Source: Octopus vulgaris
Taxonomy: Eukaryota
NCBI GenBank assembly: GCA_951406725.2
Contig: OX597832.1
Span: 1,550,001-1,614,000 of the forward strand
Length of the DNA: 64,000 nucleotides
Reading direction: 5' to 3'
Part shown: piece by piece, positions 4,130 through 7,343 of the stretch
Position numbering within the stretch: position 1 is the stretch's first letter
Layout of the letters: each line of letters opens with the position of its first letter
Made by a program: the position numbers and the translations under genes
The notes under the pieces: generated by a model
The model's database searches: none
What the model saw: only the letters and a program-made list of their open reading frames with translations
Told to the model about the DNA's origin: nothing

Positions 4130-4937
4130 AAAGTACCGAATAGTAAAGTTTATTTGCCAACAGAATGTGGCCTTCCTTTAAAGGACGTTGTTACTGTTGC
4201 TTAAGCACCAGGGAAACACTATATGGACACAGACAGTGTTGATAGCCAGCTGGAAAAGATGTTTTCCTGGGGTTTAAACAACAGTAACATCGTCTCTTAT
4301 AGGACCGCCACATTCTGTTGGCAAATACACTTTACTATATGGCGGTTGTCTACTCCTTATACAGAGTTTGACCACCTCCTGTACCTACACCTTAGGACCA
4401 TCATGGCGTCCGATGTGGCTTTTTAAACCAGACAATGTTCTGAAAAGACACCCACATAGATTGCACCTCTGATTTGAACAACTAAGACTTGCAGATAAGT
4501 TCTGGTCTTTGTGGATCTTAACATTTCTTTTAAAGCCTCCGTTGGATTTGCAAACCTTCTGGCATACACTGCATTCGAAGGTGTGAAACACACATATAGG
4601 CAGAATATTTGGTGGAGGTTCGTCTTCCATGCGTTCGCAGATGAGTTTTGAGGCCAGCAAAAGATAGGCATGGTCTGTCACAGACTGTGCATACGAAAAG
4701 GTCATTGTCATTTCTCTTCTCGATCGTTACATTCTTCCTTAGATCTCTTTTGAGTCCTACATGCATTATCCTGGCCTCTTCAAATGCTTATACTCCACTC
4801 CACACCTTTGTTCGCCATCCAACTCGATCCAAAGCAAGGGTTTCTATCTCTTTTGGAACTATTCCAAGTGACTTCATAGTAGTCCTTATGCCATCCTTAA
4901 ACCTTTTATTAGGTATACGCCGATAGCTTTTCCCTTG
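4130..4937 (-). mobile_element. 3' end of an RTE-clade LINE with three C-terminal C2H2 zinc fingers
   Basis: KRFKDGIRTTMK..ETLALDRVGWR (RTE C-terminus), then CTVCDRPCLSFAGLKTHLRTH, CSVCQKVCKSNGGFKRNVKIH and CNLCGCLFRTLSGLKSHIGRH, with frameshifts. Confidence 0.8.
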
Positions 4938-5460: not shown

Positions 5461-6132
5461 TATTTTCAAGTCGTGTCACCCGAAGACAGTTTTTATCGTG
5501 AGGAGAAATAATATGAGTGATATATGGCTTAGTTATAATTGTGACTTGTTCATAATTATAAACGTTTTTCTTTATATTTTATGATAACATGTTTGGCCAT
5601 TGATATATTCATTAATAATCGTAATTATTTATCCTCCGTAATGTTTTACATGACACTCTACTTATTTAAATTTTCCTAACTCCGGTGATTTTGCCGTGGT
5701 TCGAGATAACCGGTCTTTTCACATAAACGCTGTGCATGACATTTTAATTCAAAACTTGATTGTGTAGATAGAGGTGAAAACATTTCTATTGCCGGTCGGG
5801 ATTCATGCTAGTTTCAATCTTGTTTTGATTTCTATCTGTAGGAATATTTTCCCTGACGAGGCGAATGGGTCCCTTAAGAGGTACCTAACGCCGAAATTGC
5901 AATAGGGAATTAGCCAGTTAGTTTCAAGTAGTGGATTCTATTTGCCATGTCGCCCGAAGGCAGTTTTTATCGCGAGGAGAAATAATATGAGTGATATAAT
6001 GACTTTATAGCAGTTTTGGCTGCTATTTTTAACATGTAAGGGTTTTTTAACTCTCATAGTTACCTCTGACAAGAAAGGAGGTTATGTTTTCATTATAATT
6101 GTGACTTTTTCATAATTAAAAACGTTTCTCTT
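5461..6132 (+). mobile_element. Non-coding hammerhead-bearing element with terminal direct repeats (PLE pLTR or retrozyme-like)
   Basis: 5474-5524 is repeated at 5948-5998 and 5533-5572 at 6093-6132. Flanked by TA/TACA microsatellites; hammerhead inside. Confidence 0.65.
5848..5909 (+). ncRNA. Type I hammerhead ribozyme, intact core
   Basis: TTTCC-CTGACGA-GGCG...CGCC-GAAA-TTGCA-ATA-GGGAA. Palindromic stem III ATTGCAAT, triplet AUA. Confidence 0.85.
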
Positions 6133-6147
6133 GAATACATACATACA

Positions 6148-6545
<398 letters not shown>

Positions 6546-6640
6546 AATATATGACTGAACAAGTAAAAGAGTAAAAGAGAGTAAAGAGTATACATATATA
6601 CATGCGTATATATATATGTATGTATATATATATATATAAT

Positions 6641-6706
<66 letters not shown>

Positions 6707-6811
6707 TATATATATATATACGCATATATATATATATATATATATGTAGGTCCCGGGTTGATTCGGGGTTAACCACAGTAAATAAGGTACTCAATACATA
6801 GCAGAGTAAAA

Positions 6812-6948
6812 TTAATTTATTATATAGAAGGAGCTTCTACAGGACTAGAACTGTTTCATTCAAGAGAAATCATCAGGAAGCTCCTGATGATTTCTCTTGA
6901 ATGAAACAGTTCTAGTCGTGTAGAAGCTCCTTCTATATAATAAATTAA
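6812..6948. repeat. Near-perfect palindrome, 67-bp arms, 3-nt loop, 1 mismatch
   Basis: 6812-6878 is the reverse complement of 6882-6948. Confidence 0.95.
6830..6884 (-). ncRNA. Type I hammerhead ribozyme, intact core, inside a fold-back
   Basis: Minus strand: GGAGCTTC-CTGATGA-T TTC tctt GAA T-GAAACAG ttctagtc CT-GTA-GAAGCTCC. 8-bp stem I, stem III ACAG/CTGT, triplet GUA. Confidence 0.85.
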
Positions 6949-6950
6949 AA

Positions 6951-7005
<55 letters not shown>

Positions 7006-7168: not shown

Positions 7169-7343
7169 ATATTCTATTGTGTCTGGGGAGAGTCATTTTT
7201 TTTTGTGCCTTATAATGTAACTCACTCACCGGTAATGTGTTACATTATAAGGCACAAAAAGAAAATGACTCTCCCCAGACACAACAGAATATGGTTCAAC
7301 ACACGAACTCATATAAAGAATCTTGCAAACCAAATCCAAAAAC

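Follow-up and report, generated by a model that had tools for sequence, protein, structure and literature searches.

Palindromic insertions of a Hydra-clade Penelope-like element in Octopus vulgaris have fixed outer ends and centres enriched at the edge of a hammerhead ribozyme

Introduction

Positions 6812 to 6948 of a 64,000-nucleotide stretch of Octopus vulgaris DNA (contig OX597832.1; hereafter the window) form an almost perfect palindrome that carries hammerhead ribozyme motifs on both strands, and the question is how such a structure arises and why its centre lies at the edge of the ribozyme. A sequence-only reading of this locus had suggested that a ribozyme stem primed a fold-back during reverse transcription. 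Inverted 5′-truncated copies with a one-sided tail are standard anatomy of Penelope-like elements (PLEs), and the formation of their tandem and inverted repeats and of the tail is stated as unresolved (PMC8557442); in Schistosoma, dual hammerheads on opposite strands have been noted (PMC4209133). Here, the locus was compared with its family copies across the genome with regard to the exact positions of junctions and outer ends, the base at the presumed RNA start, the encoded proteins and the predicted RNA folds.

Materials and methods

Genome-wide matching was performed on a 2.8-Gb assembly of 227 contigs. Element positions were counted from hammerhead C3, which is window position 6876 on the minus strand. 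For breakpoint mapping the first 100 of 3,858 matches were used, picked by their 3′ end irrespective of the 5′ side and all derived from the first 69 Mb of contig C1. The first 30 loci were left out of the counts because the query had biased them toward the junction of this locus. The base at −7 was counted by hand at 76 loci among the matches listed (100 of 116). The hammerhead was identified by its core, its fold and its match to published Hydra-clade hammerheads (File S2, PMC8557442). Published work is cited from the available passages of each source.

Results

Structure and extent of the insertion

The palindrome consists of two arms of 67 bp each (6812-6878 and 6882-6948), as the sequence-only reading had described, with a 3-nt AGC spacer between them and a single mismatch at the pair 6842/6918. 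The interval 6812-6948 given there holds for the palindrome itself, but the whole feature is larger: the minus-strand arm continues to 6746 as a 66-nt tail, and palindrome and tail together make up a 203-bp insertion (6746-6948) flanked by (TA)n tracts. The features are as follows.

6590..6745, no strand given: (TA)n-type target microsatellite, left flank
6746..6882, minus strand: long (sense) arm, element −6 to +130, bounded by the inferred RNA start and the fixed distal end
6746..6811, minus strand: unpaired 66-nt tail, on one arm only, equivalent to the PLE 'tail' (PMC8557442, PMC11167929)
6832..6882, minus strand: native type I hammerhead, from fold, core and likeness to Hydra-clade hammerheads
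6879..6881, no strand given: unpaired palindrome centre AGC, 3 nt, from arm comparison; the identical junction matches 300 times
6882..6948, plus strand: short inverted arm, element −2 to +64, one substitution at 6918
6883, minus strand: G at −7, not element-encoded (native T or C), likely a reverse-transcribed cap
6949..6999, no strand given: A-run and (TA)n target microsatellite, right flank

The long arm is identical to a native copy of the element (locus L061) at 137 of 137 positions, and the short arm has the core of the mirror hammerhead but lacks the 5′ bases of its stem I. The junction is one base short of a perfect palindrome, and at this locus the G at 6883 can alternatively be read as a base of the inverted arm. 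A 26-nt pattern from the 3′ side beside the palindrome has 3,858 exact matches in the genome (reversed control, 0) and the exact junction has 300; the palindrome is therefore not a chance sequence. The single locus is an inert fragment, a by-product of a known element class. An A-run at 6946-6959 separates the short arm from the (TA)n target and has a counterpart in one other copy, L030. A MITE or a miRNA-like hairpin was ruled out by the unequal arms and the linked reverse transcriptase (RT) ORF, and Rfam miRNA matches at the palindrome stayed far below gathering scores, both in the 64-kb window and in 5700-6960.

The element family

The insertion is a Hydra-clade PLE in (TA)n, and the family is young. 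In L061 the family's hammerhead and tail sequence lies about 1.9 kb downstream of the RT, and in tandem copies it lies just 5′ of the ORF, whose ATG is at +176, so that it occurs on both sides in the manner of a pseudo-LTR (pLTR); an inverted arm adjoins 62 of the 100 sampled copies. An ORF of 712 aa (L153:1054-3189) contains YRDDG and LVY..SYIG, and its homologues have PF00078 and PF01541; direct Pfam and PDB sequence searches with the family ORF gave no informative match. The single ORF thus combines an RT with a C-terminal GIY-YIG-type endonuclease, as in EN+ PLEs. Its translations show RIRWR (with RWR instead of RWK), SDKTKN (LDKTKN in L153) and CNCPDKTTC, and the preference for (TA)n insertion and the canonical hammerhead are those of the Hydra clade. 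By-eye comparison with passages of the supplement of PMC8557442 revealed RT likeness to Hydra-1_Amil and Hydra-1_Obim. The family is not one of those published, its own N-terminal and hammerhead strings having no match in that supplement.

The published members of the clade (Hydra-1_Obim, Hydra-1_Amil, Penelope-n_HM; Craig et al. 2021, PMC8557442) likewise have a single ORF of about 710 aa with RT and then endonuclease, RWK-like, DKT and CxCX5C motifs, a (TA)n target, a type I hammerhead of the form ctgatgat...tgaa, and an inverted 5′-truncated copy with a one-sided tail. Unlike the '<3 kb' units described for them, the octopus unit is longer because RT and hammerhead are about 1.9 kb apart in L061, with microsatellite-rich sequence in the gap; its tail is about 66-69 nt instead of 30-40, and its inversion centres are fixed whereas those in the available account of the published clade are variable.

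The intervening sequence in L061 (G000:C2:167518000-167527900) is rich in (TA)/(TG) microsatellites, parts of which are common to several copies, so that the element carries microsatellites besides targeting them. Among the 24 ORF-bearing loci listed (L138-L158), most stop at one common position just past the RT thumb, before the endonuclease, and five reach the end, which suggests an amplified endonuclease-less subfamily. Assignment to the non-LTR retrozymes, which are defined by tandem head-to-tail monomers each with a hammerhead (10.64898/2026.07.22.740005), was rejected, the copies here being dispersed head-to-head pairs.

The hammerhead and the hairpin

A type I hammerhead with a minimum free energy (MFE) of −13.8 kcal/mol is the predicted fold of 6830-6884 on the minus strand, which bears out the complete ribozyme claimed for this interval. 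The native hammerhead has the full set of CUGANGA, GAAA, UH and three helices, its parts being stem I AGCTTC/GAAGCT, CUGAUGA, U-UUC(UCUU)GAA-U, GAAA and stem III CAG..CUG, and cleavage is predicted after GUA, between 6838 and 6837. Rfam scans of the whole window and of 5700-6960 did not score the hammerhead of the palindrome. Variation from copy to copy falls mostly at N7 and loop II. The U.U at the base of stem II, which all 63 motifs have, is usual in the clade, since the published Hydra hammerheads have the same ctgatgat...tgaa layout with U.U at this place (PMC8557442 supplement). In the context −6 to +135, the predicted pairing of stem I is only about 0.2.

The plus-strand motifs were likewise found where they had been placed, with CTGATGA at 6884, GAAA at 6903 and GTA at 6920, and the weakening noted for stems I and III was traced to missing stem I 5′ bases and to the change at 6918, which breaks stem III. 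The view that stem I is itself an inverted repeat largely did not hold: native stem I has 6 bp (TTAACT-AGCTTC) and its native palindrome is AGCT only, so that the repeat is mostly a product of the junction. The 8-bp stem I read from this locus is partly built by the junction, since native copies have T or C at −7.

A minus-strand transcript is predicted to form a hairpin of −117.0 kcal/mol, compared with −46.9 kcal/mol when the hammerhead is enforced. This gap of about 70 kcal/mol makes the proposed switch between ribozyme and silencing hairpin unlikely; in addition, the complementary arm would be transcribed first on both strands. The 203-bp insertion has no TATA. A silent or siRNA-producing hairpin is possible, and the mirror ribozyme is predicted to be a by-product locked in the hairpin. 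Stem III and its loop (6840-6855, minus strand) are near-palindromic, with a predicted self-dimer of −12.8 kcal/mol (−15.2 for the subfamily variant in L142), which resembles described dimeric PLE hammerheads.

Breakpoints and outer ends across family copies

With 62% of copies adjoining an inverted arm, about 2,400 palindromic junctions are estimated for the genome. Of the 100 sampled copies, 19 extend more than 160 nt upstream, and the other 81 were used for breakpoints. The 5′ end of the sense arm was exactly at −6 in 27 of these and within −7 to −1 in 43, while the 153 nt upstream contained 7 breakpoints and the 85 nt downstream contained 31; at least two of the '−6' calls (L032, L087) are read-through into a diverged subfamily, and 25 is therefore the safer count. 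The enrichment at stem I that had been proposed as a check was thus observed, and the scarcity of breakpoints upstream is a wall as expected at a template end.

The outer ends are equally fixed. In 59 of the 62 inverted copies the short arm ends at +60 to +66. By pattern match, 87 of the 100 copies end at +130 into (AT)n and one continues to the ORF; most of the 12 others have the same end site with a variant. The next element bases past +130 match the target. A multi-kilobase inversion in L061 has the same two outer ends.

A palindrome at 1772-1864 in the window (tail to about 2000), likewise in (TA)n, belongs to a second hammerhead family, for which a 23-nt pattern has 924 matches. This family has its own type I hammerhead and the same layout of short and long ends. 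Only 1 of its 19 breakpoints lies at −7 to −1 (30 loci examined, 11 outside the range, some loci being two arms of one insertion). Its reference copy has no TATA at −29 and the family also lacks the AGCT palindrome, so that the comparison does not separate the start site from that palindrome.

The presumed RNA start and the extra G

In 62 of 63 pattern matches, which span 10 hexamer/spacer variants and are not independent loci, a TATA-like hexamer (as in TATAAAT) precedes A(−6) by 29 nt. Of the 76 copies that start at −6 and adjoin (AT)n directly, 40 have G at −7, 15 have C, 12 have T and 9 have A; among the 40, a single G was found in 38 and GG in 2. The genome as a whole has 971 sites with G at −7, 1,854 with A and 3,170 with C/T, and among the matches listed many of those with A(−7) pair up as the two halves of a perfect palindrome. 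In L1 and SVA, an untemplated 5′ G is the recognised hallmark of a cap that was copied (PMC4859970).

From this pattern we infer that Pol II initiates at A(−6), where stem I begins; the mRNA would then carry the hammerhead at its 5′ end, and the RT would run off there. The centres would then lie at the first base of the hammerhead likely because the capped RNA starts there and two run-off copies get joined. In two runs guessed to be RNA the summed contig depth rises at the bin from −5, with DNA runs level; contig depth cannot show a start, and this rise is given no weight here. Against this start, 36 of the 76 (AT)n-joined copies have a base other than G at −7, and the G may stem from cap-independent terminal addition or be one base of a stem-I-templated extension. 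AGCT is self-complementary, and part of the clustering could therefore come from microhomology alone. The YAG at −7 to −5 also resembles a 3′ splice site. For the Penelope element of D. virilis, an intron end that maps to helix I (PMC4209133) and a TATA-less internal promoter (PMC2377424) have been described.

Discussion

How the palindromes may form

Taken together, we consider it probable that the insertions arise from two cDNAs. Each would begin at one of two fixed start sites and run off the RNA at its capped 5′ end, and the two would then be joined head to head. This reading builds on the family, on an ORF of RT and GIY-YIG type just 3′ of the hammerhead, on the landmarks −6, about +61 and +130, on G(−7) and on the TATAAAT spacing. 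Both ends of the cut target would prime on one RNA, at +61 and +130, and each short cDNA would end in ...GGAAGCT plus a C copied from the cap. The two cDNA 3′ ends would then anneal through the self-complementary AGCT and give a perfect GGAAGCTTCC centre; alternatively, they would be joined by a 2-bp snap-back, either TC:GA, as in the junction at this locus, or CT:AG. Local snap-back of a cDNA end on TC:GA, extra base included, probably formed this particular junction, and this locus alone is equally compatible with snap-back of one strand. A C follows GGAAGCT in 71 of 100 matches listed (50 of 158 loci, both strands, hand count); since a single strand that snaps back repeatedly would copy the same C, we do not regard this as proving two cDNAs.

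The closest alternative shares the RNA-start step and differs solely in the number of cDNAs. One cDNA, primed at +130 and running off at −6, would fold back and copy itself until the AT-rich region at about +61 anneals to (TA)n, which we regard as unlikely. The loop lies on the long arm at this locus, as fold-back predicts, repeated snap-back inserts at centres can come from one strand, and subfamily variants, among them that of loop II, match between the arms in 38 of 39 copies; the latter points to one RNA or one source locus. The relative reach of the arms weighs on the other side. Of the 62 inverted copies, 18 have a long arm that exceeds the short arm by 3 nt or more on the 5′ side, but in 17 it is the short arm that extends further 5′, by at least 9 nt in 9 (one of them, L087, a mis-call from a diverged subfamily). 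Single fold-back of a long cDNA cannot yield such copies, and fold-back of a short cDNA cannot supply +63 to +130; therefore this class needs two cDNAs or later deletion, and deletions at an unstable palindrome centre could indeed account for it. Short arms ending at +61 also occur alone with G(−7) (L172, L191), and a loop could not be accommodated in the perfect AAGCTT centres. Joins within stem I, in which the short arm carries the complete hammerhead in 8 of 9 cases, speak against a single cDNA as well.

Such joins are at the same time a point in favour of the original proposal, in which base pairing within stem I of the cDNA provides the primer for fold-back and the breakpoint is determined by the ribozyme structure. 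That the palindrome is a product of retrotransposition stands, but stem I pairing as the main primer is quite improbable. Breakpoints do coincide with the 5′ edge of stem I and the first base so added would likewise be C; however, the predicted junction was found in 0 of the 100 sampled copies, and single G outnumbers GG by 38 to 2. Genome-wide there are 35 AAGG/AGCTT sites (slash, junction), and 9 of 12 inspected are true joins of the TAGAAGG/AGCTTCC kind, which could instead be, and are equally explicable as, deletions between two GGAGCTTC repeats. The second hammerhead family, with 1 breakpoint of 19 at this position, also argues against priming by the stem. Hardly probable, too, is self-priming on an antisense RNA template, or a 5′ end created by splicing at the YAG beside stem I. 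The former is the published model for the same geometry (PMC3846280), but it leaves the sense TATA at −29 and the G in non-palindromic copies unexplained. For the latter, a pyrimidine-rich stretch precedes the YAG and the intron end at helix I in D. virilis offers a precedent (PMC4209133); splicing would nevertheless be expected to give ends at −4 or a fixed first exon, whereas 27 ends lie at −6 and 4 at −4, and the −6 ends are preceded by one G and then target DNA.

An assembly or sequencing artefact such as a fold-back chimera is very improbable. Palindromes between (TA)n tracts are hard to assemble, and among the contigs listed none bridged the centre in the window with 31 bases on each side. 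However, the arms differ at one base and are unequal with fixed ends, and the junction types are diverse but recurrent, this one with its 300 matches. In addition, −6, +61 and +134 are loose ends in contigs of two other DNA runs (X3 and X4), which makes an artefact unlikely, and one X4 contig has an extra C followed by (AT)n.

Two run-off cDNAs, our preferred reading, could be part of a wider scheme, which we put forward tentatively and consider doubtful as a whole. The cDNAs would resemble strong-stop products, and the capped mRNA, driven by the TATA, would have the hammerhead as its first 50 nt; a dimeric RT would prime twice on one RNA, at +61 and +130, and both cDNAs would run off the cap, head-to-head joining would generate thousands of hairpins, and jumping of the ends would generate tandem pseudo-LTRs. 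If this were true, one mechanism would account for tails, inversions and tandems of PLEs, and the element would seed its own silencing hairpins. A composite locus (L191-L193, G000:C1:65712941-65713527) contains an inverted arm of −6 to +130, a sense copy from −6 into the ORF and, after the ORF part, a few A, one G and a second sense copy of −6 to +61; this arrangement suggests that a run-off cDNA had jumped onto a second RNA end.

Comparison with other elements and significance

In L1 twin priming, the two cDNAs derive from different parts of the RNA. The octopus cDNAs, unlike those of L1, would both cover the same 5′ segment and hence give a palindrome. Two primers on one RNA likewise lead to an inversion in L1, and full-length copies of capped RNA are recognisable by an additional G (PMC4859970). 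For the anole Poseidon element PAc it was demonstrated in vitro that both target strands are cut and extended and that two start sites bracket the tail; a dimer is predicted, and hammerhead cleavage is unnecessary (PMC11167929). In octopus both start sites are found on opposite arms of one insertion, and inverted junctions do not figure in the available passages of the PAc work (PMC11167929). The inverted pLTR junctions of Adineta Penelope elements have the same head-to-head geometry, with TATA and Inr-like motifs in the pLTR (PMC3846280), and in the available text they are ascribed to antisense self-priming without a link to the RNA start or a cap G.

Inverted PLE copies with a tail are already known. 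The family-wide junction signature is new as far as the open-access literature was searched, where no report tied PLE inversion centres to the RNA start or the cap. About 2,400 junctions with three fixed landmarks and an extra G favour a sense, capped template and two priming events and speak against the published idea of antisense self-priming. The junctions would also mean that the RNA begins with the hammerhead, which would stay uncleaved while it is copied. The model makes the formation of PLE inverted repeats testable base by base, with base-exact predictions for each step.

Other features in the window

A third palindrome with tail, inserted in (TA)n, is located at 7178-7283 (tail to about 7343) and is likely another PLE; its family is older and diverged, with 8 exact matches to the tail pattern. 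A hammerhead-like motif on the plus strand at 5845-5905 combines CTGACGA, a long stem II, GAAA and a short palindromic stem III, and reaches only 14.7 bits with Rfam Hammerhead_3. Finally, an imperfect 83-bp inverted repeat with a 33-nt spacer lies at 4140-4338, without (TA)n flanks.
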